From: Promethearchaeota archaeon
GTDB taxonomy: Archaea > Asgardarchaeota > Lokiarchaeia > Sigyniarchaeales > SOKP01
Length of the DNA stretch: 64,000 nt
Direction of reading: 5' to 3'
Assembly (NCBI GenBank): GCA_048938445.1
Contig: JBHLME010000003.1
Coordinates: 15,824 to 79,823 of the forward strand
Positions 20,870 through 63,701 of this stretch are shown one piece after another. The notes below the pieces were generated by a model. That model was not told the origin of the DNA, did not search any database, and worked only from the letters and a program-made list of their open reading frames with translations. Within the stretch, counting starts at the first letter, position 1. Each line of letters opens with the position of its first letter. Position numbers and translations under genes: made by a program.

Positions 20870-21619
20870 TTAAACATTCCATCCTTTTTTCTTCAATATA
20901 TAGTTTTTTATACGTTCAGGCAAAGCAAAGGTAATATATAAACCGAACATTGCAACAACATAGAGAGCTCTACTAATGAATAAAAAAATCGCTATTTTAA
21001 ATGAAAATTCAAATACTGAAGCTATATTTGAAACAATCAAATAGAATAAAAAAGTTATACCCTTTAGTTTTACTACTGGATTTTCCGTTTTTAGAGAGTT
21101 TACGATAAAAATCACTCCTGTAATGATAAAGATAAATGTAAATATAATTACAGGGATATAATAAATTGGTGCAAAATCCAATTCAAAATCAGGTGTGTAA
21201 CCCGTGCCAAAAAGATGTCTCTGTCCTAATATTATTACGATTAAAGTAAAACAAAGATAAATCGCAATATATGCAATATAAATCCCCACAATAATTTTTT
21301 GTTTTTCCTTATAGAGGAGGTTAGTAAAAAGTAGTAACCATGCTGTAATTCCAACTGCACTAAAGATAAATAGTATCAAAAAATCAAGTTCAGGTAAAAT
21401 ATCGATACCACTTAACATGTAAAAAAAATAATTTATCGCAGAAATGTAGGAAAAAATAGCAAAAAAACTTATATATATCGCTACTAAAGCAATATTTTTA
21501 TCCTTGATTTTGTAGGATTTATATAATAAATAGGTACTTGCAATGGTAAATAATATCACCTGTAGTATCGTTAACATTAAATTAATTTGTTGTATGTCAA
21601 GTATTCCAATACCGTCCAT
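20870..21619 (-). CDS. Multi-pass (~7 TM) membrane protein
   Basis: About seven hydrophobic segments; C-terminal FALPERIKNY. Confidence 0.75.
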   Translation of the reverse strand: MDGIGILDIQQINLMLTILQVILFTIASTYLLYKSYKIKDKNIALVAIYISFFAIFSYISAINYFFYMLSGIDILPELDFLILFIFSAVGITAWLLLFTNLLYKEKQKIIVGIYIAYIAIYLCFTLIVIILGQRHLFGTGYTPDFELDFAPIYYIPVIIFTFIFIITGVIFIVNSLKTENPVVKLKGITFLFYLIVSNIASVFEFSFKIAIFLFISRALYVVAMFGLYITFALPERIKNYILKKKGWNV

Positions 21620-37792: not shown

Positions 37793-37807
37793 TTTTTTCT
37801 TTAAATA
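37793..37807 (+). promoter_or_regulatory. T-rich-BRE TATA promoter
   Basis: TTTTTT-C-TTTAAATA about 46 nt before 37853; lies in a divergent intergenic region, so not a terminator. Confidence 0.6.
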
Positions 37808-37852: not shown

Positions 37853-39022
37853 TTGTTAGTTTTAGAAACAATAAAAGTAAATGAAGCTACAAGTATCAAG
37901 GAAATTAAAGAAGTATTAGAAGATCTACTCTATGTACCAGATGAACGAGTAAAAGTTAAAGTAATTGAGGAATATTGTATATATCTAGATTCAAAGTCTA
38001 AAAATAGTAATTATGAAATAAAATCATTCATTGCCCGAGTTAATGAGATTCCAGTTGGAATTGCAACGTGTTACATTCATCCAAGTTATACAAGTTATGG
38101 ACGAAAGTGTGGAGTAATAGGGTGGCTTTACGTAAGCAATATTGATATATGTAAAGAATTAATTGCTCGATGTGAATCATTTTTCATTAAACAGGGAATT
38201 AATAAAGTTCGAAGTGGAATAAATTTTCCGAAAAGTTTAGGGGGTATTGGGTTTCAAGTTAAAGGATTTAATGAACAAATGTTATATGGAGTGGCGTTTT
38301 CCTCACCCGAACAAAACGAGCTTAAATTTTTAATTGAATTGGGATATCAAGTCGAATGTAACTATACATGTTTACGAGTATCATCCAAAACATGGGATAA
38401 AGGAAAAAAGATAAATGGTAATATTAAGTTTAAATACGTGCCATTGAAAGAGATAATTGCAATACATGAACAGGTGCAAGAGCTTTCAAATAACTCTTTC
38501 CAAGGAATATTACCCGACACTTCAGGTGGAAGGTTTGAAGAGTTCATTTATGCTTTTAAACAAATGCCCGAAAATAAATCCACTTTAAACCATGATATCA
38601 AGCTAAAAGAGCTTTCCAATAATCCCGCTTTTTTAAACGCATGGGAATCTTGTGATCTCGAATATATCACTCCCTTAATGCCGATGGCTTTTGAAAAAAA
38701 AACAAATGAATTAATTGGGGTGTTATTAGGCCTACCAGACTTATATGAGCATTGGAATGGCAAGAAAATAACAAGAGTCAATGTTGACACGGCAATCGTG
38801 AGAAAAGACTATAAAGGAAAGGGAATATTCTCGGCTCTAAATAACATAGGACAATTAACATGTAGTTTATATGGAATGACATATTTCGAAGGCACGACCG
38901 TGTGGACGGGAAACTCTCGGGGCGTGAACAACACGGATGCAATAAATTCAATAATGCCACATTGCATTCCAATAAGAAAACATGTAGTTCTCCAAAAAAG
39001 ATTGAGGAGAAAACTTGGATAG
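37853..39022 (+). CDS. Tandem GNAT-fold protein
   Basis: FIARVNEIPVG...GVIGWL; IGVLLGLPD...VDTAIVRKDYKGKGI...EGT.VW..N. Confidence 0.72.
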   Translation: MLVLETIKVNEATSIKEIKEVLEDLLYVPDERVKVKVIEEYCIYLDSKSKNSNYEIKSFIARVNEIPVGIATCYIHPSYTSYGRKCGVIGWLYVSNIDICKELIARCESFFIKQGINKVRSGINFPKSLGGIGFQVKGFNEQMLYGVAFSSPEQNELKFLIELGYQVECNYTCLRVSSKTWDKGKKINGNIKFKYVPLKEIIAIHEQVQELSNNSFQGILPDTSGGRFEEFIYAFKQMPENKSTLNHDIKLKELSNNPAFLNAWESCDLEYITPLMPMAFEKKTNELIGVLLGLPDLYEHWNGKKITRVNVDTAIVRKDYKGKGIFSALNNIGQLTCSLYGMTYFEGTTVWTGNSRGVNNTDAINSIMPHCIPIRKHVVLQKRLRRKLG

Positions 39023-42385: not shown

Positions 42386-42401
42386 TATTTAAAGAAAAAA
42401 A
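42386..42401 (-). promoter_or_regulatory. T-rich-BRE TATA promoter
   Basis: Minus strand TTTTTTT-C-TTTAAATA-GTTCT; the 13-mer AGAACTATTTAAA is identical to 36755-36767. Confidence 0.6.
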
Positions 42402-44842: not shown

Positions 44843-44858
44843 TTTTTTCCTTTAAATA
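44843..44858 (+). promoter_or_regulatory. T-rich-BRE TATA promoter
   Basis: TTTTTT-CC-TTTAAATA about 49 nt before 44907; divergent intergenic region. Confidence 0.6.
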
Positions 44859-47011: not shown

Positions 47012-48391
47012 ATAAAAAATAATTTAAAAAAGCGAGTTTTGATCATTTTTGGAGTGGTATTCGTCCTGTTTAGTTTCCCTTTCCTCAGCAGCAATTTTAA
47101 TTATAAGATTGTTAGCATCGATTTTAATAAAGAAGTGAATACATCTTCAACTCCTTCAGTTGATTGGTATTATACATGGGGGGGAAGTGGAGATGATGAG
47201 GGGGAAGGAATAACCGTGGACTCGTCTGATAATATTTATATTGTAGGATCCACGGAGAGTTTTGGAGCTAGTAATAAAGATATTTGCTTCATGAAATTCA
47301 ATCCAATAGGAAGCGTGGTGTGGAATTACACGTGGGGAGAACTTCATTCTGATAGAGGGTTTGATATAGCTGTAGATGATTCTGGCGATTTATATATTGC
47401 TGGAAAAACCTATAATTTTGGAGCAGGATATGGAGATATGTGCCTCGTAAAATTCAACTCTACTGGTGGCTTTGAGTGGTATCATACTTGGGGGGGAGGT
47501 GATGGTGATGGAGGATATGGAATAGCCTTGGATGCGGCGGGTAACGCCTATGTGTGTGGATCAACCCATAGTTTTGGAGCATATAATGGAGATATTTGCC
47601 TCGTGAAATTCAATTCTACAGGCGTCGAATGGAATTACACGTGGGGTGGAGCGGGAATGGATATAGGGTATGGAGTTGCCTTGGATGCTGCTGGAAACGC
47701 ATATGTAGTCGGAGAAACGGATAGTTTTGGTGCTGGTTATACAGACGTGTGCCTGATCAAGTTCAACTCCACGGGAGTGGTATGGAATTACACGTGGGGT
47801 GGTGGATATTATGATTGGGGATATGGAGTGGATGTGGATGTGGCAGGAAATGCTTATGTTACTGGAAGGACTTATACAGATAGCGTTGGTGGCACTGACG
47901 TGTGCTTGATCAAGTTTAATGATGCAGGGGTGGTTGATTATTACACATGGGGGGGAAGCGAATGGGAAGGAGGATATGATATAGTTCTGGATGCGGAAGA
48001 CAACGCATATATTGTGGGAGATACTAATAGTTTCGGAGCTAAATTTTATGATATCATCTTGGTGAAGTTCAACCCAATGGGAACGGTTGAATGGTATTAT
48101 ATGTGGGGTGGAGACGGATGGGATACGGGGTATGGTGTAGCTTTGGATTCGATGGGAAACCCCTATGTTGTGGGATACACGGAAAGGTTTAGAGGAGGTG
48201 ATTATGAAATATGCTTACTGAAATTCGTAGAGATTACGCCTGATGGCTCTCAAGGTCCAGATCCCCTATTATTCTTAATATTAGGAGGGATCATAGGAGG
48301 TGTCGCAGGTGGGTCGGGAATTGTTGCGATTTGGGTATTAGGAATAGTCCGACCCAGAAGGAAGAGAGCTCGTGCCGTTCATGCAAATTGA
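47012..48391 (+). CDS. SBBP-type beta-propeller surface protein
   Basis: Seven ~50-aa repeats W.YTWGG...D.G.GIA.D..GNAYVVG.T.SFGA...D..LVKF; signal peptide; Gly-rich TM + RPRRKR; ATA start inferred from the paralog. Confidence 0.9.
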   Translation: MKNNLKKRVLIIFGVVFVLFSFPFLSSNFNYKIVSIDFNKEVNTSSTPSVDWYYTWGGSGDDEGEGITVDSSDNIYIVGSTESFGASNKDICFMKFNPIGSVVWNYTWGELHSDRGFDIAVDDSGDLYIAGKTYNFGAGYGDMCLVKFNSTGGFEWYHTWGGGDGDGGYGIALDAAGNAYVCGSTHSFGAYNGDICLVKFNSTGVEWNYTWGGAGMDIGYGVALDAAGNAYVVGETDSFGAGYTDVCLIKFNSTGVVWNYTWGGGYYDWGYGVDVDVAGNAYVTGRTYTDSVGGTDVCLIKFNDAGVVDYYTWGGSEWEGGYDIVLDAEDNAYIVGDTNSFGAKFYDIILVKFNPMGTVEWYYMWGGDGWDTGYGVALDSMGNPYVVGYTERFRGGDYEICLLKFVEITPDGSQGPDPLLFLILGGIIGGVAGGSGIVAIWVLGIVRPRRKRARAVHAN

Positions 48392-48666
48392 TTCAGTAGA
48401 TATCACACTGAAGTCTTGAAGGACGGTGTTTTGATCATCAAAGCTAAATGCATTTAATAAAGTCCTATAAAGAATCAAATTAGCACCATAATTATTTATT
48501 TTTTCCTTTACCTTAATAAAAAAGGTAGTAAGACTTGTTGAGCGAATAATATCTCCAAAAGGAGTATCAATGGTAAAATGTAAAATTTCATTCCTAATAG
48601 TTTTATATATGACCTTGTATGCTCGTTTTTTAAGTTCATTAATTTATAAAAAAGAGATGAGAAATC

Positions 48667-50058
48667 ATGAAAAGACAAACAAAAAAGCAGGTTTGGACCA
48701 TTTTTGGATTGATATTTGTCATATTTAGCTGTCCTTTTCTCATTAATAATAATCGCAATATTAAGGTGAATGATATTAATCTTAATAAAGCCATCAGTAC
48801 ATCTTCAACTCCTACAGTTCAATGGTTTCATATATGGGGTGGAGATGGAGATGAAATTGGGGAGAATGTGGCCGTGGACTTGTTTGGCAATGTATATGTT
48901 GCAGGACACACGGATAGTTTTGGAGCGGGTAATACTGACATGTTTCTAGTGAAATTCAATCCATTAGGATATTTAGAATGGAATCGCACGTGGGGGGGAA
49001 GTGGAAATGATTTTGGGATTGATATAGCAATTGGTGCGTCAAGCAGCGTCTATGTTGCTGGAAGTACGGAGAGTTTTGGAGCAGGTAATACTGATATGTT
49101 TCTAGTGAAATTCAATCCATTGGGTGATATAGAATGGAATCACACGTGGGGGGGAAGTGGAGATGATGGAGGGTATGGAATGACTATTGACGCATCGGAA
49201 AATTTATATGTTACCGGTCTCAAGGAGAGTTTTGGAGCCAATGGATATGACATGTGCTTGGTGAAATTCAATCCAGCAGGAGGCGTGGTGTGGAATCACA
49301 CGTGGGGGGGAAGAGGAATAGATATGGGAATTGATGTAGCCGTGGATACGTCAGGTAATGCCTATGTTGTGGGAACGACGACTAGTTTTGGAGCGGGTTA
49401 TGATGACATTTGTTTGGTGAAATTTAATCCAATGGGAGGTGTTGTGTGGAATTACACGTGGGGTGGAGGGGGATATGATTATGGGTATGGAATTGCCTTG
49501 GATTCATCTGGCAAAGCCTATGTTGCGGGACACACGACGAGTTTTGGAGCTGGTAGTACTGACATATGTCTGGTGAAATTCAATCCATTAGGAGATATAG
49601 AATGGAATCGAACGTGGGGTGGAGATAGAAACGATGATGGATATGATATAGTACTGGACACGTCGGGCGACGTTTGTATTACTGGATCCACGAATAGTTT
49701 TGGACTGACACATCCCGATATGTGCTTGGTGAAATTTAATTCAATAGGAGTGGAATGGAATCACACGTGGGGGGGAAATGAAAGTGAGAGGGGACATGGA
49801 GTAGCCTTGGACTTGTTTGGCAACGCTTATGTTTGTGGATACACGACAAGTTTTGGAGCGAGTAATGATGATATGTTCTTGGTAAAATTCATAGGGATTA
49901 CATCTGAGGATAGTAATCAGGTTCCAGATCCCTTGTTATTCATAATAATAGGGAGCATTATAGGAGGTATCGCGGGTGGTTCGGGAATTATAGCAATAGT
50001 GATAGTAGGAATAGTCAGACCCAGAAGGAAGAGAGCTCGTGCTAGTCTTGCGACTTGA
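48667..50058 (+). CDS. SBBP-type beta-propeller surface protein (paralog)
   Basis: Same seven repeats and same C-terminal anchor as 47012..48391. Confidence 0.9.
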   Translation: MKRQTKKQVWTIFGLIFVIFSCPFLINNNRNIKVNDINLNKAISTSSTPTVQWFHIWGGDGDEIGENVAVDLFGNVYVAGHTDSFGAGNTDMFLVKFNPLGYLEWNRTWGGSGNDFGIDIAIGASSSVYVAGSTESFGAGNTDMFLVKFNPLGDIEWNHTWGGSGDDGGYGMTIDASENLYVTGLKESFGANGYDMCLVKFNPAGGVVWNHTWGGRGIDMGIDVAVDTSGNAYVVGTTTSFGAGYDDICLVKFNPMGGVVWNYTWGGGGYDYGYGIALDSSGKAYVAGHTTSFGAGSTDICLVKFNPLGDIEWNRTWGGDRNDDGYDIVLDTSGDVCITGSTNSFGLTHPDMCLVKFNSIGVEWNHTWGGNESERGHGVALDLFGNAYVCGYTTSFGASNDDMFLVKFIGITSEDSNQVPDPLLFIIIGSIIGGIAGGSGIIAIVIVGIVRPRRKRARASLAT

Positions 50059-50202: not shown

Positions 50203-51432
50203 TTAAGAATTAATTAATGCTCTTGCATTCTCTTGCATATCAAGCACTTTTTTTGAGGAAAAACCAGATATTTTAGAAGCAAGATCATCAGGATCCGCTG
50301 CCAAGAGGTCTTCAATTGAAGAAATACCCTGACTTGCCAAATTTTCTGCCGTGCCTTTTCCGATACCTTTAACGCTTGTCAATATAATTCTGCTTGAACC
50401 TTTAGAATCCATATCACTTACAGATTCTTCATAGAGAGCTTCGATATCAAAAGTTACGATATCTTTATCATCCTCATACAATTCCACGTTATCAGTATCA
50501 GCAATCCCCGCTGACGTGATGTAAAACTCGCACTCTTCGGGAGGCAGGTCGGGAGCATCAACGATGATTCCCCTCCGTTTTAAAGAGCAATTTGAAGAGA
50601 ATCCCTTAGTCTTGAACATCATCCTGAAGTGGCAGCCATGAGCAACAATATTTCCTCCTATGGCATCATCTGCAGCGAACATTCCAACCATTTTCGTTGC
50701 AACTTGATTCGTGAGTAAGATAGCACAATTATAAGTCTCTGCTATACGCGACAAACCGTGAATCATGTTATTAAGCACGGATTGCCTCCTTGCTAACATT
50801 CCAATGCCAATATATTCATTCCGCATTAATGCCATGAGACTATCAACAATGATCAATCTAACATTTCTGGTCTTACATAAAGTTTCTGATTTATGGATCA
50901 TCTGTGTTTGGTGATCTGAGCTATAAATCCTTGAATGATATAAACGTGATAGGATTTTCTTAGGATCCATTCCAAATCTTCTTGCTATTCGCTTTATTTT
51001 TTCTTTTGAGAAGGTATTTTCCGTGTCGATGTAAGCAACCGAAGCATCCAATCCTCCCTTACTCTTAGGAAGTTGGACTGTCACCGCAATCGTGTGAGCA
51101 AGGTTGGTCTTACCTGACTTGAATGGTCCAAATACTTCAGTTAATTTTCCGGTTTGAATCCCTCCACCTAAAATTTGGTTTAATCCGCTTGAACCAGTAG
51201 TGATTGTCTCGACATTCTCATTAATTTCAGCAGCTGCAGTAAAATCAGTCATACCCAATGCATCTCTAGCATTCCAAATGAGTTTTTTTGCTGTCTTATC
51301 TCCTAAACCGTCGATTTCAGCAACAAAAGAAGCAGGGGACATTGCTAAAGCTTCAGCAGTGCTCACCCCATTTTCTCGAAGGAGCTTGATCTGTCGGGCA
51401 TTAATTCCCTTGACCTGGTCTAATTCAGACAT
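50203..51432 (-). CDS. radA: RadA/Rad51-family recombinase with an extra C-terminal HhH domain
   Basis: N-terminal HhH, polymerisation Phe (DFTAA), Walker A GPFKSGKT, IDTENTF, LIIVDS, TNQV, GGNIVAH; C-terminal VKGIGKGTAENLASQGISSIEDL. Confidence 0.92.
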   Translation of the reverse strand: MSELDQVKGINARQIKLLRENGVSTAEALAMSPASFVAEIDGLGDKTAKKLIWNARDALGMTDFTAAAEINENVETITTGSSGLNQILGGGIQTGKLTEVFGPFKSGKTNLAHTIAVTVQLPKSKGGLDASVAYIDTENTFSKEKIKRIARRFGMDPKKILSRLYHSRIYSSDHQTQMIHKSETLCKTRNVRLIIVDSLMALMRNEYIGIGMLARRQSVLNNMIHGLSRIAETYNCAILLTNQVATKMVGMFAADDAIGGNIVAHGCHFRMMFKTKGFSSNCSLKRRGIIVDAPDLPPEECEFYITSAGIADTDNVELYEDDKDIVTFDIEALYEESVSDMDSKGSSRIILTSVKGIGKGTAENLASQGISSIEDLLAADPDDLASKISGFSSKKVLDMQENARALINS

Positions 51433-51514: not shown

Positions 51515-51529
51515 TTATAAAAGAAAAAA
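51515..51529 (-). promoter_or_regulatory. T-rich-BRE TATA promoter of radA
   Basis: Minus strand TTTTTT-C-TTTTATAA about 82 nt before the radA start. Confidence 0.55.
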
Positions 51530-53540: not shown

Positions 53541-54275
53541 CTAACAGAAAACCAAACCAGAATTGCATAATTCATATTCAAAATTTTCATTTATACCTTC
53601 AAGATTTATGCTTATATTCATTGACTTCCTTTTTGAGATTATATCATTAGATAAATTCACATTAACGGAGCAAATTCGCTCATATAACTTGTTGAGAAAG
53701 GGTTTTTCTTGTCTTAATTCTGGGACATAAGAAATCTCATGAATTAGAATCAAATAAATCTTCTCCCTTTGACATTTCATTATCAAGGGTGATAAGAGAG
53801 AATCAAAAAATCCATTGATTAAGGTGCTCTTATCTCTAATTGTGCTAGCCCTTGAGAGTTCAAATCTCAAGTGGTGGGATATGTTATCGATGACAATGAA
53901 TTTTAAACTTGGAGGGAGGATGCTTTTATGGTTGATGATTTTATGCAAGACAAGTTCTTGTTCTACAAAATTTGAACAAGGAACGTTACTTGGGATCACA
54001 TACACGTTTTGTTTCAAGTAATGTATTTTTGATCTAGAATCCTTGAAAATCGTCTCAAGGCGCTTATTGGAAAAATATTCAGATGCTTGCACCCATATAC
54101 AGCTTTCTTCAAGAGAGACATCTGTCGTGAGTAAGTGTCCCATTATGAATTGAGCAAGAGTTGTTTTTCCCGATCCAGAGGGTCCTGAAATTGAGAGGAT
54201 TCCGTTCTTGACAAGTAATTTTTCAATTAAGTTCAAATATGATTCTTGAGTATGCATTTTAGAACATTTATTCAA
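53541..54275 (-). CDS. RadB/Rad51-paralog-like ATPase
   Basis: Walker A GPSGSGKT, WVQASEYFSNKRL, Walker B FIVIDNIS; no N-terminal HhH. Confidence 0.82.
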   Translation of the reverse strand: MNKCSKMHTQESYLNLIEKLLVKNGILSISGPSGSGKTTLAQFIMGHLLTTDVSLEESCIWVQASEYFSNKRLETIFKDSRSKIHYLKQNVYVIPSNVPCSNFVEQELVLHKIINHKSILPPSLKFIVIDNISHHLRFELSRASTIRDKSTLINGFFDSLLSPLIMKCQREKIYLILIHEISYVPELRQEKPFLNKLYERICSVNVNLSNDIISKRKSMNISINLEGINENFEYELCNSGLVFC

Positions 54276-54603
54276 GTATTTTTAGTATTTCTTGACGTGC
54301 CTTATCATGCTCATCTAATTCCTCCTCATTATGATTCATATCTTTAATTTCTGAATTAAGACTTGAATTATTTTTTGAAAGCTGTTGCAAGAGCATGAAA
54401 GTAAGGAGTTTTTGAGCCTCATCTTGCATTCCAATGCTTGCACTACTCCTGAATATTCCCTTTCCGCCTTTTTTTCTAGATTTGAGATATATATATCCTC
54501 CACCTATAACTGCAATCAGGATAATTCCTAGGATATAATTCTGTTTGAAAATAACGATCATTGCAACTAAGAGTGCCATGTAAATGAATGCTTTCATTAC
54601 CAA
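54268..54603 (-). CDS. Small membrane protein
   Basis: Two N-terminal TM helices, basic patch, charged tail; overlaps both neighbours. Confidence 0.72.
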   Translation of the reverse strand: MVMKAFIYMALLVAMIVIFKQNYILGIILIAVIGGGYIYLKSRKKGGKGIFRSSASIGMQDEAQKLLTFMLLQQLSKNNSSLNSEIKDMNHNEEELDEHDKARQEILKILE

Positions 54604-55358
54604 TGCGCCTCCTCGATACCAATTTTATAAGGTTCTAATGGCCTGTGAGTCCTACGTGTATATGTATTCATGTTGGTTTTATTTGTCACTCTCAAGTAAG
54701 GATTCCTAAACAATTTTGAAAGGCCTAATAATCCATATTTAAACGTATAATAACCGATACCAATCAAAAAAAGATACAAGAACTCGAAAAGTACTATATT
54801 GAATATTGATAAGAAAAGAAATATTGAAAAAACTGATAATGATAATAAAAACAATTGATATAAAGAATATTGAACATCCTTATTGAAATAATAGACAATA
54901 TTACCTAGATCAGTAGAGGAAGGTGAGGCACCCAACACTAAAGAGAGACACATGAATCCGTAAAATACACTTAATAGATCGGGCACATTAACATTAAAGA
55001 AAAGGTTAAAGCATAGGATGAACAACCACGTGGAGGCTATTAATGGAGCAAATCCTACAACGGCAGATTTTAAAAAAGTCCACTTTCTAGGGCTTAATCG
55101 TACATGACCATGAGGTGCAACTTTAGTGCTCCTTTCTGATCGCCATCCAAAATGAATTTCCTTTATCGGAACTCTTATCAATAAACACGCAATTACATGA
55201 CCCAATTCATGGACGATGACTCCGATGAAATCAAGCACATGTAAAATTTTTTTAAAAGGACCTGATTCAATCCGATATAATGTCTTCCTGATGACTATCG
55301 ATAAGATCATTATCATACAAAAGAATGCTATAGTATTCAGCATGACAAAATTATTCAT
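54597..55358 (-). CDS. M50B-like membrane Zn-metalloprotease
   Basis: GVIVHELGH, GHV, FAP, PSSTD; about 6 TM helices; possible leaderless start at 55343. Confidence 0.82.
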   Translation of the reverse strand: MNNFVMLNTIAFFCMIMILSIVIRKTLYRIESGPFKKILHVLDFIGVIVHELGHVIACLLIRVPIKEIHFGWRSERSTKVAPHGHVRLSPRKWTFLKSAVVGFAPLIASTWLFILCFNLFFNVNVPDLLSVFYGFMCLSLVLGASPSSTDLGNIVYYFNKDVQYSLYQLFLLSLSVFSIFLFLSIFNIVLFEFLYLFLIGIGYYTFKYGLLGLSKLFRNPYLRVTNKTNMNTYTRRTHRPLEPYKIGIEEAHW

Positions 55359-55367
55359 AATTAAAAA

Positions 55368-55384
55368 TATATAAAGAAAAAAAA
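55368..55384 (-). promoter_or_regulatory. T-rich-BRE TATA promoter
   Basis: Minus strand TTTTTTTT-C-TTTATATA about 25 nt before ATG 55343 (leaderless spacing); divergent region. Confidence 0.55.
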
Positions 55385-55616
55385 TAGTTTTGATTAGTCA
55401 TTTTATTGTGACAAAAAAGTAAACACGAAAAATTTACTTTTAATATTTTTAACCAGATTTTTAAATTCTTAAATATTATTAAAAATCGCTTCTAAAACTT
55501 GGCCTTATATTTAATTTTTAGGATTAATTTCTTTTTTCCTTGGACTTCAATTTTCGTGACCGATCCATACTTTCAACTTTTTCCCTTTTTTGCAAAAATC
55601 CTCAAAATGAAATCGA

Positions 55617-55668
55617 GTGATAGGATGCGCCTACTATCATTTTTTGATCCAAAGAATAAGATTTAAAA
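55617..55668 (+). promoter_or_regulatory. Imperfect inverted repeat + canonical BRE/TATA upstream of the tfb-like gene
   Basis: TGATAGG-ATGCG-CCTACTATCA followed by AAAGAATAAG-ATTTAAAA. Confidence 0.5.
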
Positions 55669-55725
55669 AGAGGAGATACCCCCATATATTTCTTAACAAT
55701 AATGAAAAAAATAAGTTGAAAAAAA

Positions 55726-56973
55726 ATGGCAATATTTGGATCTGAAATTGCTAGAGTTTCTTACCCTGAAAATATGACTTGTGATGCATGTCATTCAAAA
55801 AACATAAAGGATCACGAACTCGGACAGGTGTGTGGAGATTGTGGAATTGTCCTTGAAAGAGTCAAATTGGAATATCATAGACCTTATAATGAAGAGGTGC
55901 TCCAACACGCAGTCTTGGGAGGTACGACCATGGGTACAATGAAAGAACGACTTCATTCGTCACGATCTCTCTACCTTAACAAATTAAATAAGTTACATTC
56001 GATTCAGGATTCTGAAGATGCCGTTAATACCAAGGCAAGGAAAGAAATCAAGCGAATTTTCGAACATCTTCAATTACCTAAATCTAAAATAGAATTAGCG
56101 TTTTTAAAGTTCAAAGATTTTCGTTCAAGCCTCCTTCCAGGAACCAAATACAGGAGTCCTGAGAAATTAGTTCCAATCACGATATATTTCTGTATGAAAC
56201 TTAATAACATTTCAATTAGCGAGTCTGAATTGTTAGAAGTTTCGCAGATTAGGAAGAAAGAATTTAATGCTTTCAAACTTCAAATAACGAGGTTCATGCC
56301 AGAGTATGCCGAAAGAAATAGAAAAGATTATATCCTTCAAAAAATCATGGAAATTAGAGAGCACTTTTCCTTAGATATGGTATTTTATTATAGAGCAAAA
56401 GCAATTTTATATAAGTTATGGAATACCATTAATTGCACCAAAGATGAAGTTATTGCGGGATTAGCATGTTCCATAACGACTTTGTGTTGCTATCAAGAGA
56501 GGGAAGATATCTCTGTCAATAGTATATGCTCTAAGCTTGGTATCATGATGAGCACCATACAATCACAAGTGAAGAGGAAAATTATTGATAGATATAAGAT
56601 TCCAAATTTTATCAGCCTCGTGAAATCATCTGATATTCTCAAAAAGATCCTCATTGCATTGAAAATAATTGAAGAAGATTTACCTGTGAATGAAAATGAG
56701 AATGTTGACACATGCAAAATAATTGAAAATGATTTCATAGAAATCAAGTTAATGAGAAAAGGTTTGGGCGCATTTTCTCATGATGAAAATGACAAATATT
56801 ATCATTTTGCATTGAAAGATGTAAATGATAATCCAATTTTCATCGAGATTAAGACAAAAGCAAGACGTAAATTAGATGCTTTAAGTGAAAAAAAGTATTC
56901 TCGGAATTCAAATGGCTCTATATTTGAATTTGGAAGGTATAGATATTTCCGAGTTAAAGGACCACCTGTATAG
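55726..56973 (+). CDS. Divergent TFB/TFIIB-family protein
   Basis: Zn ribbon CDAC...VCGDCGIVLE; two cyclin repeats (ARKEIKRIFEHLQLP...ITIYFCMK; VIAGLACSI...ISVNSICSKLGIMMSTI); ~110-aa C-terminal extension. Confidence 0.85.
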   Translation: MAIFGSEIARVSYPENMTCDACHSKNIKDHELGQVCGDCGIVLERVKLEYHRPYNEEVLQHAVLGGTTMGTMKERLHSSRSLYLNKLNKLHSIQDSEDAVNTKARKEIKRIFEHLQLPKSKIELAFLKFKDFRSSLLPGTKYRSPEKLVPITIYFCMKLNNISISESELLEVSQIRKKEFNAFKLQITRFMPEYAERNRKDYILQKIMEIREHFSLDMVFYYRAKAILYKLWNTINCTKDEVIAGLACSITTLCCYQEREDISVNSICSKLGIMMSTIQSQVKRKIIDRYKIPNFISLVKSSDILKKILIALKIIEEDLPVNENENVDTCKIIENDFIEIKLMRKGLGAFSHDENDKYYHFALKDVNDNPIFIEIKTKARRKLDALSEKKYSRNSNGSIFEFGRYRYFRVKGPPV

Positions 56974-57386
56974 AGCTATTATAATTCCTTTTTATATTTA
57001 AACTTAAATTAATGTATTATTTTTTATTTTTATCTTAATTAATTTGATTGGTTAGTCCTAAGCTATAATTTTATTGCATTTGTTATTGGCTCTTTTTATC
57101 GATTTTTAGCTTTTTTACTCATGTTCTTGACTTTCTGTCCCTTCCTTCCTTTCATTTTTTTTTCATCTCGAGCTAAAAGACCAAATACACCTGCAACTAT
57201 GATTTTATTCTTTTTTTCTCTTTTCATAAATTCAACTTTTCTGGATTTTTTGATATTGAGTTGAAGTTAATATGAGGATCTATATAAATCAATCTGGTTA
57301 ATAATTGAAATTTATGCATTTTTAACTCAAATTTATATTTTTTTTTTATATACTTCCATAAAAGACAATGTATAGAGCACATCTAG

Positions 57387-60320
57387 GTGCAAAAAATGAA
57401 ATTAAAAAAAATAAGTTGTATATTTGGATTAATTAGTTTATTTTGTTTAACGATGTTGTCTGGGATTTTTAATATAGAAAATCTTTCAGAATATTCATAT
57501 GTAAGTGAATATCAAAATGAAATCTTGACTCCTTCCATATCAGTTGGGACTAATGAAGATATTATTGACGAGATTTTGGATGCTAAAATAGGTTTCTTTC
57601 AAGCGGAGCAATTCTTTCCCGGATTGTATGAAACATCCATACATGCAACCTATTATGCGATCTATACAATCTTTACTCTTGGAAAGAGTAATATGTTAAA
57701 CGAAAATACCATCATCGACTTCATTATGGCGCATTACAATAATTCCACTGCACTTTTTGAAGATAGTTATTCGGATCGATATCTAGATACAGACTTTAAC
57801 CAGTGGTATTTTCCTCTCACCACGTTGCTCGAGGTAAATTGCTATGCGTTCCTCACGCTTGACTTGTTAGATGCCATGGACCGGATAGACACGCAAGATG
57901 CCATCGATTTCATCTGGAGCTGCTATAATCCCGTCACCTCGGGATTCATTGGTCAACCTTATGATGCAAGCTTGGAAGAAAAATTCAAAGTATCGACATT
58001 GGATAATACATATCACGCTATATATACCTTGGATTTGCTCATGGATGATTGGACGGTTTACAGTCAGGAAGAGGATGAACTTGTAGCATTTATAAACAGC
58101 TTACAAAATCTGGATGGAAGCATTGATAATGATTTGGATAATCTATTTGATTCCTTACAAATCTGGGAACCAAATCCAATATCCGCGTGGTATGCCGTGA
58201 AAGTACTCGAGTTGTTCAATCAAGTGGACACGATCAACCTTGCAAACCTTAGAACCTATCTCGAAGAACTTTATGATATAGGAAGGGGCTGCTTTAAATT
58301 GTCCACGATATCTGGATATGAACAGCATTCTGACGTGATATCAAGTGCTTTGTGCATGGAAATTTCGGACATCGTGCTCTTTGCCAATTATGACAGGGCA
58401 GCAACGATTCAATTCATCCAGAATAATCGAAATTCTCTGGGAAATTGGAATGAAGGGACGTTGTATGATTATCATGAACTCCTTTATACTTACTTTATCA
58501 TTCGAGCCTTTGATAATACTGGTTCTTTACCAAATCTTAGTCCTGTTGAGGTTGATGAAATTGCAAGCTCCACGAGTTATTATTATGATGGAATTGGTGG
58601 ATATGCAATTCTTTCTAAGGACTACACGCCCATAAAGTCGTTGTATTCGGTGATAAATTCTCTCATGATTGAAGATAAATATGATGACTTGAACTTGTCG
58701 GAAAAGGAGGCGCTTTTTACCTCAATAATCAGCGGATACCAAGAATCTCCTTTTGGCAAATCCGCATTTTTCTACAACATTAAAGCGTACAATCAATTCA
58801 TAGGATTCATGACCTCTCCCTTGGATTGTTTCAGTGCGGGTTCGAAAGAACGGCTTAAAGTAATCGAATACGGAACCACCCATAAAAACACGTATCTTAC
58901 CCTGGAGATGCTTGATCGAATGTTCAAGCTCGATGATTTAGATACTATGCACGATTTAACGAGATTCATTGATAATGTCATTGCTTCCCATTTTATGGAA
59001 ATTGGTTACGATGAGACCGGGGGCTTTTACATCAACGATGGCATTCAAGCCCAACCTGCTAGTCTCCGAGTAAATTTCATCTATTTTGAACATTCATATT
59101 ATGCAATAAAAATCCTTGAATTACTGACTGAATTCTTGGGTATTGGAGATGTACATGATGTTGGAATCGACCACGATGCATTTATCGCTTACATATACCG
59201 AAATATCCAACAATTCGGCGACATTTTATGGTTTCAACCAAAATACACGGATGACGTCGACATCATCTTGAAAAATATTTATTTTGCCATTGATGCACTA
59301 CAAATCTTAGATGCTTTTAATTTAGACGTCCAGAAAATCTATAATTTCATCTACCAAAACATCGATTATACCAACATTAGAAATGTCTATTATTGCCACA
59401 AGATTATTAACGCCTTGAGCTTGGATAACTTTATTAATTATGATATGGTAAAAACATTAATATCTTTGCTTTACGATGAATCGACACACGAATTGTACCT
59501 CACGACTAAAAGGAACAATATCTGTCAAGAGGCACTCTGGTGGGTGTGTGAAATGGCGAATTCAGGTATCATAAAAGCTGAACTTTCAGTAACTGATCCT
59601 GTTCCACTTGGTACGTCAGTAAATGTCTCAGTGACCTTAAAAAACTTGATATACAACGTTTCAACGCAATATTATCTTGTAAATTTTGAAAGTAATCAAT
59701 TGGGAACATTTCAATTACAAGATCATAGCTCATGTTATTGGGATGAGATTTTCATTCCCATTTATCCAAGTAATTATCCATGGATAATAGGAAACATTAG
59801 CATCTATAAAAGCGGTCTCAAACAGCTTGAAGTGCCCTTGGTAATAAATACAACCTACGAGACGTACGAAGAGTTCGATATTAAGAAGCTTGCTGATGGA
59901 AGCATTGTGTTTGATGGATTATCTCAACTCATCATCAATGATGATACCTTTCCTGCGGGATTATATGGATTTCGAGTAAGAGTTGATGTTTACTTTAACG
60001 ATGGATTTACCGAATCACTCTATATGGAGTCTTCTGACACCCAATTTAGCGACCGTACAGAGTATTACTTGAAATACACTCCTCAATCCTATGGTAAATA
60101 TTACTTTGAGATGTATTACGAAAATCCCATTGAACAAAATGCAATAATGATCAATTCTGAATCACTTTCTTACTCGGGAAGTTCAGGAGTTTTCCAAGGA
60201 CCGGACAACGCCCTGACTGGAGCGATCATCATTGGAGTAGCACTTGCCCTCTCCTCAACGGGTGTCATGGTGTTCTCCACTAAGAAACGAGGTGTACTCC
60301 ATAGAAAATTTAATAGATAA
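57387..60320 (+). CDS. Secreted prenyltransferase/squalene-oxidase-repeat (alpha/alpha toroid) protein with C-terminal TM anchor
   Basis: Signal peptide; repeated TYYAI..L..L...ID..I...N..GGF units; beta-rich stalk; TM + KKR. Confidence 0.8.
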   Translation: MQKMKLKKISCIFGLISLFCLTMLSGIFNIENLSEYSYVSEYQNEILTPSISVGTNEDIIDEILDAKIGFFQAEQFFPGLYETSIHATYYAIYTIFTLGKSNMLNENTIIDFIMAHYNNSTALFEDSYSDRYLDTDFNQWYFPLTTLLEVNCYAFLTLDLLDAMDRIDTQDAIDFIWSCYNPVTSGFIGQPYDASLEEKFKVSTLDNTYHAIYTLDLLMDDWTVYSQEEDELVAFINSLQNLDGSIDNDLDNLFDSLQIWEPNPISAWYAVKVLELFNQVDTINLANLRTYLEELYDIGRGCFKLSTISGYEQHSDVISSALCMEISDIVLFANYDRAATIQFIQNNRNSLGNWNEGTLYDYHELLYTYFIIRAFDNTGSLPNLSPVEVDEIASSTSYYYDGIGGYAILSKDYTPIKSLYSVINSLMIEDKYDDLNLSEKEALFTSIISGYQESPFGKSAFFYNIKAYNQFIGFMTSPLDCFSAGSKERLKVIEYGTTHKNTYLTLEMLDRMFKLDDLDTMHDLTRFIDNVIASHFMEIGYDETGGFYINDGIQAQPASLRVNFIYFEHSYYAIKILELLTEFLGIGDVHDVGIDHDAFIAYIYRNIQQFGDILWFQPKYTDDVDIILKNIYFAIDALQILDAFNLDVQKIYNFIYQNIDYTNIRNVYYCHKIINALSLDNFINYDMVKTLISLLYDESTHELYLTTKRNNICQEALWWVCEMANSGIIKAELSVTDPVPLGTSVNVSVTLKNLIYNVSTQYYLVNFESNQLGTFQLQDHSSCYWDEIFIPIYPSNYPWIIGNISIYKSGLKQLEVPLVINTTYETYEEFDIKKLADGSIVFDGLSQLIINDDTFPAGLYGFRVRVDVYFNDGFTESLYMESSDTQFSDRTEYYLKYTPQSYGKYYFEMYYENPIEQNAIMINSESLSYSGSSGVFQGPDNALTGAIIIGVALALSSTGVMVFSTKKRGVLHRKFNR

Positions 60321-60336
60321 TTTAGTTTTTTCTCAA

Positions 60337-60352
60337 TTTTTTCCTTTTATAA
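60337..60352 (+). promoter_or_regulatory. T-rich-BRE TATA promoter of the hef operon
   Basis: TTTTTT-CC-TTTTATAA 25 nt before ATG 60377 (leaderless spacing); could overlap a terminator. Confidence 0.5.
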
Positions 60353-60376
60353 TTTCATCATTTGGATATAATTAGT

Positions 60377-60955
60377 ATGTCAGATTCAGATCTTGATAAA
60401 AGATCATATGAAATTTTGGGTCATATTTTAATTGCACTGAAATCCTTTGAAGGGAAATATGATAAAAAATTAAATTTTAGCAAGCTTGCACGATATTTTC
60501 GATTAAATGAACGAGATGCAGATTATCTGGCAGAATTCATAGTCAAATTCCAAGAAGAATTTAAAGATTTTAGCAAAATATTTTGTAAGTATAAATTAAA
60601 TAAAAAATACGAGAATGGTAAAATCTACGTTACTGCTGAAATTAAAGATGATGTTGTTCCCAAAACAATTCATTTGGAACAAGAGCATGCAAATTGGTTG
60701 AGTGATTTAATTTATTCATTTCAACATGTCAAAAAGGGTAAGGGATTTGATCTATCAAATAAAAACGTTGACATTGTGAGAAAAATCCGACTTTTGATGA
60801 AGTCTCATCCGTATCTTTTTTATAAGAATGGAGGCGATCTCGTGTATCCTTCACGATTAGGATCTGAATTGGGAAATGCAATCCTTTCCTGTAAGAAATT
60901 GAACAAGCAATTTGTAAATAGGAAAATTAATGAATGTGAGATTCGAATTGATTAA
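60377..60955 (+). CDS. Hypothetical protein (possible HTH), first gene of the hef operon
   Basis: LNFSKLARYFRLN helix pattern; 2 nt from the hef start; the track start is TTG 60362. Confidence 0.65.
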   Translation: MSDSDLDKRSYEILGHILIALKSFEGKYDKKLNFSKLARYFRLNERDADYLAEFIVKFQEEFKDFSKIFCKYKLNKKYENGKIYVTAEIKDDVVPKTIHLEQEHANWLSDLIYSFQHVKKGKGFDLSNKNVDIVRKIRLLMKSHPYLFYKNGGDLVYPSRLGSELGNAILSCKKLNKQFVNRKINECEIRID

Positions 60956-60957
60956 TT

Positions 60958-63169
60958 ATGGTTGAGATAAGAGGAACTAAGCCAGAGGAAAAAAACTCAT
61001 ATTTAGAAAAAAAAGAGGTTGAATATCGACATTATCAAGAAATAATTGCCCAAAAATGCGTCGGAAAAAATTCATTAGTAGTAATTCCGACCGGGCTTGG
61101 AAAAACTATCATTGGAGTCCTTGTCGCGGCAAAATTATTAGAAATGGTTCCTTCAGACAGCAAGATTATTATCTTGGCTCCAACCCGACCGCTTATCGAA
61201 CAACATTTCCAATCATTCCTTCAGAAATTATCGATTCCAAAAGAGAAGTTCGCAATCCTCACAGGAAAGATTGCACCGAGCAAAAGAACAGAGATATTTG
61301 AAACAAATCAAGTGTTATTTTTTACGCCTCATACCCTTAGAAATGACCTCGTGAACAAGAAATATGATTTAAGCCACACTTGCTTGGTGATCTTTGATGA
61401 AGCCCATCATGCGTCAGGTGATTATCCTTATCCCTTGATTGCTGATAAATACAAACAACAAAACTCTGATGGAACTATCTTAGCACTCACGGCATCTCCT
61501 GGTGCTTCAAAAAAAAATCATTGATCTGTGCAATACACTTTATATCCCACCTCAAAACATTCACATACGTTCCCGAAAGGATGAAGACGTGAAGATATAC
61601 TTGAAACCAATGGACATTTACAAGATTGGTGTTGACATGTCGGATTTAATGGAGGAAGCATATTTATCAATAACTCAAGTATTAGAAGATAAGTTGCTCT
61701 ATTTAGCTCACTTGAGTTTTTTATCTCAAGATATAAAACCATTATATAAGCACGTGATAAGGAAAGACCTGGTAAAACTTAACTTGGAATTACTGGAAAT
61801 AATCAAGGGGGATGGTGATAAGACTGGAGTGTATAGCGGAATTTCCGTCAATGCCCAAGCTCTTAAATTACATCATATGCTCGAATTAATCGAACAGCAA
61901 GGACTTGAGATGTTAATGGAATACATGAAAAAAATGCGAAAAGATTCCCGGAAGAAAAGTAGTTCAAAAGCAATAAAAATTTTAGCTAATAATCCACAAT
62001 TACGAAGAGTTTATATAGAGCTAAAAAAAAATGAAGAATTTTCACCTAAGGAACTCATCCATCCCAAGCTTCCCGTGTTAAAAAAATGCTTAATAGAAGA
62101 ATTAAATAAAAATAAGCAAGCTAAAATACTCGTATTCGTCAAGTTGAGAAATTCAGTGAAAAATATCGTGAATAAATTGGATAAGATTGATTTAATAAGA
62201 CCAGTAAGGTTTGTAGGACAAACAACGAAATCAAAAGAAGATAAAGGACTTTCTCAAAAGCGACAAGTAGAGATATTAGAATTATTTAAGGAAGGTAAGT
62301 ATAACGTGTTAGTAGCAACCAACGTGGCAGAAGAAGGTCTGGATATTGCAGAGTGTGATCTAGTCATTTTTTATGATGTAGTTGCATCAGAGATCAGGTT
62401 AATACAAAGAAAAGGAAGGACTGCACGGCATAGGAAGGGGAAAGTATTGATACTTTATACCAAAAACACCCGGGATGATATATATATGAAAATTGCTTTA
62501 AAAAAATTAAAAAAAATGAACGTAAACCTCAAGAACAAACAGCAACTTCACGGTTATTATGCTAGAGAGCAGATAAAGAAGGATGTGCTATTAAATCAAG
62601 AATCCCTAAATAACCATACACAAGCGAGAAATAATGACGGATTACCTCAAAATAATGAAGTTAAATTTGAGATTGTCCGTCCGAAAATGATTATTCCTAA
62701 AAATAAAAAATTTAACTTGGATTATTTTGCTGAAAAGGCTCTCGAAGAGAAAGAAAAACAATTTAAGGAAAAAAGTCCGGGAATTATAATAAGCAAGGAC
62801 TTACCATTGAAATACGGACTTCGTCATGAATTAAAGACACGTTCAATTCCTTTTATTGCGATATCCTCTGAAGTACACGTGGTTATTAATGACAAGATAC
62901 TCGTGCAAGTTTATAAAACTACACCTCAAAATTTTCTAATGAAGAAATATCTTTCTCTTTATGAGAGATATAGAAGGAAATATGAACTCGTGATCTTTGT
63001 ATTCGAACTGCTGGACTTCCAGGAATCATTTGGTGGTGAAAAACGACTATTCAAGAGAAAAGTCCAAGAACTTACTATGGGAAATGATCTTCAAGTAGTT
63101 CCTATTGATGATCATTCTGAACTTTTTTTTCTCGTGAGATCTCTATATGAACAGAAAAACTCTCGGTGA
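60958..63169 (+). CDS. hef: Hef/FANCM-family SF2 helicase split by a frameshift in an A9 run (61509-61517)
   Basis: ORF1: YRHYQ, PTGLGKT, APTRPL, FDEAHH, LTASPG. ORF2: HPKL, RFVGQ, VAEEGLDI, QRKGRTAR. The two frames join at the homopolymer. Confidence 0.9.
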
Positions 63170-63179
63170 ATGACTTAAA

Positions 63180-63701
63180 ATGGAAGAAAAAAGTTTTAAA
63201 AAGGTTGAAAAATCCTATTACATCTTTGCCTGTTCCACGTGTAATAATTATTCATATGTAAAGACTACGCAAAAAGGAAAGAAATGCTTACGTTGTGGAA
63301 GACACCATCAAGTAGAAAAGCTTAAAGCCATATCAGAAGTTGTTTCAGGTATTAGTACTGCGAAAGATAGGATTATAGAATTAGAAAATCTTATGGCGCG
63401 AAAAGAGCTTGGTTCTGAACCTGAATTACGATCTGAAAATGATTTCTATATTTATTATCAAGATTTACAGAAGAGTTCAAGTTCAAATAAAATTGAACAT
63501 AATGGAAGCGACTTCCTCAAATTTAAACTACTACTTAATACCTTAAGAGATAAATACAAGAAATTTCCGCTATACTTGATTGAAATTTCAGCAATAGATC
63601 ACCAAATTCCCCAAGAAAAATTGAAATTTTTAATAGAAAAATCTATTAAAAATGGAATCATAAAAAGGACCGCAGAAGGATTGTATTTTATGGTTTCTTA
63701 A
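63180..63701 (+). CDS. DUF1922-like Zn-ribbon protein
   Basis: IFACSTC...QKGKKCLRCGR; C-terminal wHTH-like helices. Confidence 0.72.
   Translation: MEEKSFKKVEKSYYIFACSTCNNYSYVKTTQKGKKCLRCGRHHQVEKLKAISEVVSGISTAKDRIIELENLMARKELGSEPELRSENDFYIYYQDLQKSSSSNKIEHNGSDFLKFKLLLNTLRDKYKKFPLYLIEISAIDHQIPQEKLKFLIEKSIKNGIIKRTAEGLYFMVS

Follow-up and report, generated by a model that had tools for sequence, protein, structure and literature searches.

Archaea are thought to diversify transcription mainly through paralogs of TFB and TBP that read similar promoters, and few clear cases are known in which a paralog goes with a promoter class of its own. The haloarchaeal TFB families include alternative TFB paralogs that have their own regulons, and TFB3 of the Sulfolobales is a truncated activator devoid of most of the core. 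The present analysis concerns a TFB-like gene at positions 55726..56973 of a 64,000-nucleotide stretch of Promethearchaeota archaeon DNA (assembly GCA_048938445.1, contig JBHLME010000003.1, positions 15,824 to 79,823), hereafter called the window. In the encoded protein, the recognition helix was rewritten and then frozen, and this coincides with a promoter class whose B recognition element (BRE) position is inverted in base composition and with a compact optional gene island.

In the available parts of the sources, the nearest published precedents are the alternative TFBs of Sulfolobus. Sulfolobales TFB3 activates DNA-damage genes (PMC6101594, PMC6101591) and is, like the protein described here, a non-canonical TFB paralog tied to DNA-repair and exchange genes. 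According to the available part of a preprint, the promoters of Sulfolobus TFB1 and TFB2 have BREs that look similar but differ in their BRE-TATA spacing (bioRxiv 10.64898/2026.09.06.749720). The locus examined here departs from the TFB2 case by a BRE position inverted in composition (a T-run in place of A/purine), a rewritten helix and a candidate regulon in the form of a compact optional island. With TFB2, as well as with the haloarchaeal families, it would share a paralog that has a dedicated gene set and is itself transcriptionally controlled. In contrast to TFB3, the protein is not truncated: it has a full-length core with two repeats, a helix-turn-helix (HTH) and an extra domain. Literature searches, which did not extend to supplements, turned up no paper that describes this TFB-like family, a promoter class with T-tracts or an island of this kind in Asgard archaea. 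Two articles, in the parts that were available, mention TFB generically only (PMC12993045, PMC7289017).

A TFB homolog with a rewritten recognition helix

The gene and the domains of its product are arranged as follows.

55726..56973, + strand: TFB-like gene, an open reading frame (ORF) of 415 aa with an ATG start
55774..55857, + strand: Zn ribbon, residues 17-44, with C19, C22, C36 and C39 invariant
55858..56010, + strand: B-reader/B-linker-like segment, residues 45-95, with 'HRPYN' and 'LGGTTMG..ER'; poorly modelled
56014..56310, + strand: cyclin-like repeat 1, residues ~97-195
56320..56586, + strand: cyclin-like repeat 2, residues ~199-287, with the HTH at its end
56548..56586, + strand: rewritten recognition helix, residues 275-287, 'MSTIQSQVKRKII', aligned to canonical 'TEATIRNRYKE'
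56587..56970, + strand: C-terminal extension, residues 288-415, with a helix, a disordered linker, a small three-stranded sheet plus helix, and a terminal KGPP

The TFB-like protein is a full-length TFB homolog comprising a Zn ribbon, a reader/linker region, two cyclin repeats and a recognition helix. Its layout follows that of canonical archaeal TFB (P. woesei, PDB 1D3U/1AIS), which has the ribbon, the reader/linker, both repeats and the C-terminal HTH in the same order. It differs from canonical TFB by a faint sequence similarity, the replacement of the helix arginines, ~120 extra residues and its occurrence in one GTDB family. The earlier note on this DNA had described the Zn ribbon and both cyclin repeats as recognisable, and this was borne out by several comparisons. 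In an alignment of 35 family members, the four ribbon cysteines are invariant (35/35) and Pfam Zn_Ribbon_TF is matched by 32 of the 35 at E<=0.1, the window protein's own match (E 0.005) lying under the Pfam cut-off. Repeat 1 is found by Pfam PF00382 (residues 102-181, 25.7 bits for a cut-off of 23.6), while repeat 2 does not pass Pfam and is visible solely to profile-profile alignment and fold comparison.

Taken as a whole protein, it falls far below the NCBIfam TFB model PRK00423 (27.9 bits for a cut-off of 384), and a PDB search with the single sequence gave human TFIIB with an E of only 1.4. Profile-profile alignment by hhalign with 14 canonical TFBs of the same genome reached a probability of 98.4% (E 6.9e-15) over 263 columns, residues 14-284, a span that runs from the ribbon through the recognition helix. 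In parallel, the AlphaFold model has a mean predicted local distance difference test score (pLDDT) of 71.8, with the core residues 100-310 at 85-94. Foldseek placed TFIIB chains of pre-initiation complexes at the top for this model (E 2.7e-7). The superposition with the P. woesei TFB core 1d3u_B covers 198 columns, with a target-normalised template modelling score (TM) of 0.78 and a root-mean-square deviation of 2.8 A. Brf1, Brf2 and cyclins rank below TFIIB/TFB, the Brf proteins at E 1e-3 or worse and the cyclins at E >9e-3. When the core of the protein (residues 95-320) was co-folded with a TBP core (C127), with alignments, scores of 0.22 and 0.06 were obtained for a mark of 0.32, a result that speaks neither for nor against an interaction.

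Besides the cysteines, the family alignment has invariant blocks within the reader/linker region, within repeat 1 ('PGTKYRSPEKLVP') and at the final helix of repeat 2 ('MSTIQSQVK'). The reader had been called non-canonical on account of 'EYHRPYN'. This sequence is indeed present at residues 49-55 but is less exotic than supposed, 'HRPYNEE' being aligned to 'RRAYTxE', the type found in 10 of the 14 aligned canonical paralogs of the genome. The linker-like 'LGGTTMG' is aligned to canonical 'KGLSTMIG', in a region where pLDDT is mostly <55.

In solved complexes of TFIIB or TFB with TBP and DNA, base-specific BRE contacts come from the recognition helix and include an arginine. In the window protein, 'ISVNSICSKLGIMMSTIQSQVK' (residues 262-283) covers the two helices with which repeat 2 ends in the model (H264-271 and H275-287). 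The helix 'GIMMSTIQSQVKR' was aligned by hhalign to 'GVTEATIRNRYKE' of a canonical paralog, and 'MSTIQSQV' pairs with canonical 'TEATIRNR' in the profile alignment. Both arginines of the canonical T-x-R-x-R are replaced by glutamine, or by histidine in some members, and the canonical BRE-contact residues are absent. The substituted helix is itself strongly conserved, since M275, S276 and Q281 are invariant and T277, I278 and V282 are at least 90% conserved in the 35 sequences. The standard T-x-R-x-R helix is kept in all 15 canonical TFBs of the genome (15/15). The proposal that the BRE-binding HTH had been rewritten is thus upheld.

The additional C-terminal stretch that had also been reported is real. 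About 120 residues that are lacking in canonical TFBs follow the helix (residues ~288-415), their pattern is conserved across the family and they end with an invariant PP inside a '[KT][GD]PP' motif. The domain model of the extension has a mean pLDDT of 65. A wide structure search gave a best Z of 4.0 with no solved fold at Z of 5 or more, and the ESM Atlas gave no usable feature match and structures at TM <=0.47. A TFIIB-type core followed by a C-terminal extension is also the layout of eukaryotic Brf1/Brf2 and Rrn7/TAF1B, and the automatic name given by JGI is 'TFIIIB Brf1 subunit/TFIIB'. No Brf1 or Rrn7 Pfam family is among those listed for the 35 members and the best fold match of the extension stays at Z 4.0, a lack of matches that leaves room for a C-terminal, TBP-binding Brf1 homology domain. 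Judged by fold, Brf1/Brf2 rank under TFIIB/TFB.

When 5.8 billion proteins were searched, 190 relatives came out at E<=1e-3. Among the 119 matches listed, identity is 41-68%, length is mostly 400-445 aa and the named ones come from Promethearchaeota or Loki-type metagenome-assembled genomes; a 50%-cluster protein library contained 348 representatives at E<=1e-3. A count in which just five candidates were scored per genome found the family profile (E<=1e-20) in 53 of 68 genomes from the GTDB family to which the window belongs, a family of Loki-type Asgard archaea, and in none of 232 genomes from 29 other families of the phylum. For five near-complete genomes of the same family, absence of the gene was confirmed in all five by a new search with every candidate scored, and the M50-like neighbour described below is also missing in four of them. 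Some genomes have 2-5 copies of the TFB-like gene, and that of the window has one. This genome encodes 15 canonical TFBs, 18 TFB-family genes in all and three full TBP genes. Since 15 canonical TFBs are present too, the TFB-like protein is a specialised paralog and not the general factor. In a maximum-likelihood tree that included 14 canonical paralogs and no eukaryotic TFIIB, Brf or Rrn7 sequences, the family groups as a single clan (100/99 support) that falls outside these paralogs. Its stem measures 2.3 substitutions per site and meets the long stem of the C155/C185 pair.

This pair represents a second divergent TFB-like type, encoded at C185:1796-2794 (-) and on C155 (L164:1260-2294 +), of 333 and 344 aa. 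It has weak PF00382 matches and its own long branch in the tree. It is near-universal in Asgard archaea, where it was found in 110 of 121 phylum genomes, mostly in single copy and with 25-69% identity. Three strict matches to the T-run promoters treated in the next section adjoin the C185 copy. In addition, a single TBP repeat (54.6 bits) is encoded at C28, ~20934-21158, inside a 505-aa ORF that by eye also contains fused small GTPase-like and winged-helix regions.

T-run promoters, the island and the gene's own promoter

The TFB-like gene lies in an optional module, an island of ~46 kb that carries spare genes for DNA recombination and continues on contig C196. In 80 related loci, the dominant order on one strand is a RadA paralog, a ~125-aa gene, a RadB-like ATPase, a small membrane protein and an M50-like protease; on the opposite strand the TFB-like gene is then followed by a toroid surface protein, u197, a Hef-like helicase and u173. 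The divergent orientation of the gene relative to the operon of M50-like protease, small membrane protein and RadB-like ATPase, pointed out in the earlier note, accordingly recurs in most of these loci. Several transcription units of the window are preceded by a run of T, usually a C, and a TATA box.

55369..55382, - strand: T-run + C + TATA block of the M50-like operon, with leaderless-type spacing in relatives
57338..57351, + strand: T-run + TATA block of the toroid operon, with one mismatch (no C)
51516..51529, - strand: T-run + TATA block of the RadA paralog (50203-51432)
44844..44857, + strand: T-run + C + TATA block of zn105/s324
37793..37806, + strand: T-run + C + TATA block of ORF 37853-39022, the leftmost strict island promoter in the window
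42387..42400, - strand: T-run + C + TATA block of the operon for a roadblock-like protein (by eye), an Arf-like GTPase and a 424-aa protein

The genome-wide TATA box is TTTAWATA (TTTAAATA, z = 9.5). At 394 sense-oriented boxes of this kind, A prevails over T at positions -5 to -1 (0.39-0.51 vs 0.30-0.41) and C is at 0.18 at -7, so that the BRE of the genome is an ordinary if weak archaeal BRE that leans to A. All the same, T-run + C + TATA is a real and directional promoter class in this genome. The motif occurs 131 times, compared with 88 for the reversed control, and an ORF starts 5-130 nt downstream of 24 of the 131 motifs vs 1 of the 88 controls. The T-rich BRE that had been announced earlier therefore stands as a directional class concentrated in the island, but not as the BRE of the genome.

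The spacer between the M50-like and TFB-like genes is conserved between loci whose proteins are just 40-50% identical. Its M50 end contains TTTTTYC-TTTAWAT in 36 of 48 loci under a strict definition and in six more under a loose one, and this block mostly begins 22 nt from the longest-frame start, a leaderless-type spacing. In the related loci, the T-run block precedes the M50-like gene in 39 of 54 cases, the toroid gene in 28 of 51, the RadA paralog in 24 of 37 and zn105 in 8 of 10. It was found before none of the internal operon genes looked at in these loci (RadB-like 0/50, Hef 0/34), nor before the TFB-like gene itself (0/78).

The class is enriched 8- to 42-fold in the island. Its density is 0.264 per kb in the 80 TFB-like loci vs 0.030 per kb in 29 TBP control loci. 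Within the genome of the window, the island was compared with the rest, and the values are 0.148 vs 0.0035 per kb for strict positioned matches and 0.296 vs 0.0246 per kb for loose ones. In the window, the block stands before eight transcription units, from 37.8 kb to the contig end. Among 10 sequencing runs that contain the stretch, none is listed as an RNA run. In the same way, the relative G192, whose island is uninterrupted and has the TFB-like gene in its middle, contains 31 matches in 46 kb vs 3 in the 33.8 kb of flanks.

The promoter of the TFB-like gene itself is of another kind.

55642..55701, + strand: own promoter-like element, with a purine-rich stretch, TTTAAAAA at 55662-55669, a C-rich spacer and an A/T-rich stretch
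55617..55639, no strand assigned: inverted repeat upstream of this promoter, palindrome-like, a possible operator

This architecture is kept in 26 of 48 loci, and relatives add CTTAG after the A/T-rich stretch. A 60-nt matrix of the element has a single match in the 4.6-Mb genome, namely itself (score 43.7; nothing else >18), and the element was rejected as the mark of a regulon. Its 33-nt core has 6 matches vs 2 in shuffles, the other five being unconvincing, and its 16-nt C-rich spacer has 931 vs 759. Upstream, a perfect palindrome TGACA-N4-TGTCA lies ~175 nt before the TFB-like ATG in 8 of 48 spacers (L037, L038, L045, L046 and L095 among them) vs a shuffled mean of 0.9. Another palindrome type, GAGTAGAG..CTCTACTC, occurs under a loose definition in 19 of 48 spacers vs a shuffled mean of 4.5, at a distance of 30-45 nt before the TATA-like box. 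The window copy fits neither pattern strictly. These palindromes are likely operator sites controlling the factor's own gene. For the inverted repeat, a palindromic operator was preferred to an RNA hairpin, which was rejected since the arms keep their sequence between loci; Rfam gave for 55250-55800 only a chance-level snoCD11 (16.2 bits for a gathering score of 60).

Candidate roles of the TFB-like protein

The changed helix and the T-runs gathered around the gene suggest that the TFB-like protein could be an island-private alternative initiation factor that reads the T-run promoters. With its ribbon, the part through which canonical TFB docks on RNA polymerase, the factor would still assemble with TBP and the polymerase. 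Its helix would recognise another sequence than usual at the BRE position, and the T-run + C abutting the TATA box is the likeliest one. Its targets would be most transcription units of the island, including those for the RadA paralog, the OB-fold protein, the Hef-like helicase, the RadB-like ATPase, the small GTPase and membrane or surface proteins. Ordinary TFB together with a repressor or an activator would set the timing of its synthesis from the purine-rich promoter and, once made, the factor would switch the island on in the manner of alternative sigma factors in bacteria. The C-terminal domain, which is conserved and has KGPP at its tail, may be a regulatory or partner-binding module. 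If true, this model would bear on how TFIIB-family factors gain new DNA specificity and C-terminal regulatory domains, as seen in Brf and Rrn7, and it would offer a directly testable sigma-factor-like system in Asgard archaea with a defined factor, promoters and regulon.

This full model may well hold but is kept tentative, slightly short of probable, because of several observations that weigh against it. Of the 16 strict positioned T-run promoters, nine head mixed genes on contigs outside the island. In G159, which is without the TFB-like gene, an M50-like paralog placed elsewhere in context has T11-TATATAT 20 nt before its ATG, at leaderless spacing. The ratio of motif to control overlaps between nine genomes with the gene (1.39, range 1.00-1.86) and five without it (1.19, range 0.97-1.59), and it is 1.42 in G026, which belongs to another family. 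No informative covariation was found between helix variants and promoter variants. The island also encodes other possible DNA binders (zn105, u173 and u197), the second divergent TFB-like gene found across the phylum is an alternative reader candidate, and both the reader/linker region and the C-terminal domain are poorly modelled. In one clade (L043, L049, L051 and L057), the helix 'GIQMSTIQ[HR]QVE' goes along with T6A instead of T6C island promoters in 6 of 8 elements, a pairing that is suggestive but, as a single co-change, anecdotal. The protein had earlier been named the natural candidate reader of the T-rich BRE. The changed helix and the concentration of T-runs around the gene lend this idea circumstantial support, while T-runs off the island and in a genome lacking the gene count against it. 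As the gene is one of 18 TFB-family genes, the label holds just for the island.

The off-island promoters, that of G159 and a whole-genome motif excess that is alike with and without the gene would also fit a somewhat unlikely alternative, in which the protein is a working alternative TFB that serves other promoters. The T-run would then set promoter strength or bend the DNA, or its reader would be a different factor, for instance a canonical TFB, an island Zn-ribbon protein or the second divergent TFB-like protein, a type present in 110 of 121 genomes and having three strict T-runs beside its C185 copy. However, this view needs a coincidence to explain why the class is enriched in the very island that encodes the factor, and the T-run stands in fixed register with the TATA box, right where the TFB helix binds. 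Moreover, no other conserved candidate motif was found, and the own promoter, the sole other conserved element, is unique in the genome. With both helix arginines gone, DNA reading could just as well have been lost. The protein would in that case be a modulator that uses its ribbon and core to join or block pre-initiation complexes and makes no sequence-specific DNA contacts, on the pattern of Sulfolobus TFB3, or else a decoy, its Gln-rich helix being used for protein contacts. The extra C-terminal domain suggests partner binding, and the recombination and repair-type neighbours resemble the TFB3 regulon in the available parts of its descriptions (PMC6101594, PMC6101591). Such a role is nonetheless unlikely, as both cyclin repeats and a nearly invariant HTH helix are kept, which speaks for a surface conserved to bind a ligand such as DNA. 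Truncated TFB3 does not have this composition.

A last alternative starts from ORC6, which has two TFIIB-like domains and is not known to have a Zn ribbon. In the same manner, the TFIIB fold may have been reused as a non-transcriptional cyclin-fold scaffold for the recombination or replication proteins of the island. Recombination genes are found all around, and 7 of the 35 members have a weak match to Pfam ORC6_2nd (best E 8.3e-4, under the cut-off). This is very improbable in view of the four invariant ribbon cysteines, which distinguish the protein from ORC6, of the conserved reader/linker blocks and of the fold search, where TFIIB/TFB of initiation complexes come first and cyclins trail far behind (E >9e-3).

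If the TFB-like protein is indeed the reader of the T-run promoters, its activity could conceivably be gated at the membrane. The small two-helix protein would tether the factor through its KGPP domain, the M50-type protease, perhaps with the RadB/KaiC-like ATPase, would free it upon a signal, and the factor would then read the T-run promoters and start a reserve programme of recombination and surface proteins. This switch is a long shot, being drawn purely from the gene order, which recalls bacterial modules of extracytoplasmic function (ECF) sigma factor, anti-sigma factor and site-2 protease. By analogy, both systems place a factor beside an M50-type metalloprotease and a small membrane protein and have a private promoter class. 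They differ in that the protein families are unrelated and that the factor's own promoter is outside the class proposed as its target.

Neighbouring genes and second copies

The main neighbours of the TFB-like gene in the window are the following.

54597..55358, - strand: M50-like membrane metalloprotease with invariant HExxH and D150
54268..54603, - strand: small protein with two hydrophobic helices, a basic stretch and two conserved helices (topology by eye)
53541..54275, - strand: RadB/KaiC-like P-loop ATPase, far under the cut-off of the RadB model
57387..63701, + strand: toroid operon encoding a 977-aa prenyltransferase-type toroid surface protein, u197, a split Hef-like helicase and the Zn-ribbon protein u173
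50203..51432, - strand: RadA paralog (Rad51 E 6.6e-70) with an extra C-terminal helix-hairpin-helix domain (HHH_5)

In the M50-like protease, H50, E51, H54 and D150 are invariant in 21 sequences. At E<=0.1, a level not checked against cut-offs, Pfam M50 is matched by 10 and M50B by 9 of these 21 members; the window protein scores 16.9 bits, below the cut-off of 26. The gene is always trailed by that of the small protein with two hydrophobic helices and then by the RadB/KaiC-like ATPase. The RadA paralog is specific to the GTDB family, with 61-75% full-length identity in 8 of 8 family genomes searched and ~43% elsewhere, over residues 3-315. Other members of the island in the window are an NT5C-like nucleotidase, an Arf-like GTPase and a protein with an OB fold.

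The genome contains four RadA-like genes, and the copy on C39 is 74% identical to the RadA paralog of the window. Other pieces of the island are also found twice, C49 containing roadblock-like and GTPase-like genes and C39 containing zn105, s324 and the RadA paralog. The C49 and C39 copies are nearer to the relative G192 (71-86% identity) than the window copies are (62-72%). The estimated contamination is 8.2%, and two strains may thus be binned together.

The Hef-like helicase (DEAD + Helicase_C) of the window is split into two overlapping ORFs, 60958-61524 (188 aa) and 61502-63169 (555 aa), while relatives mostly have one ORF of ~705-740 aa; the split is a frameshift or an assembly error. 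Finally, two tandem beta-propeller (SBBP repeat) surface proteins are encoded at 47039-50058 on the + strand, inside the island. This stretch has a G+C content of 0.34-0.41 vs ~0.30 and no T-run promoters, and it may be a later insertion.

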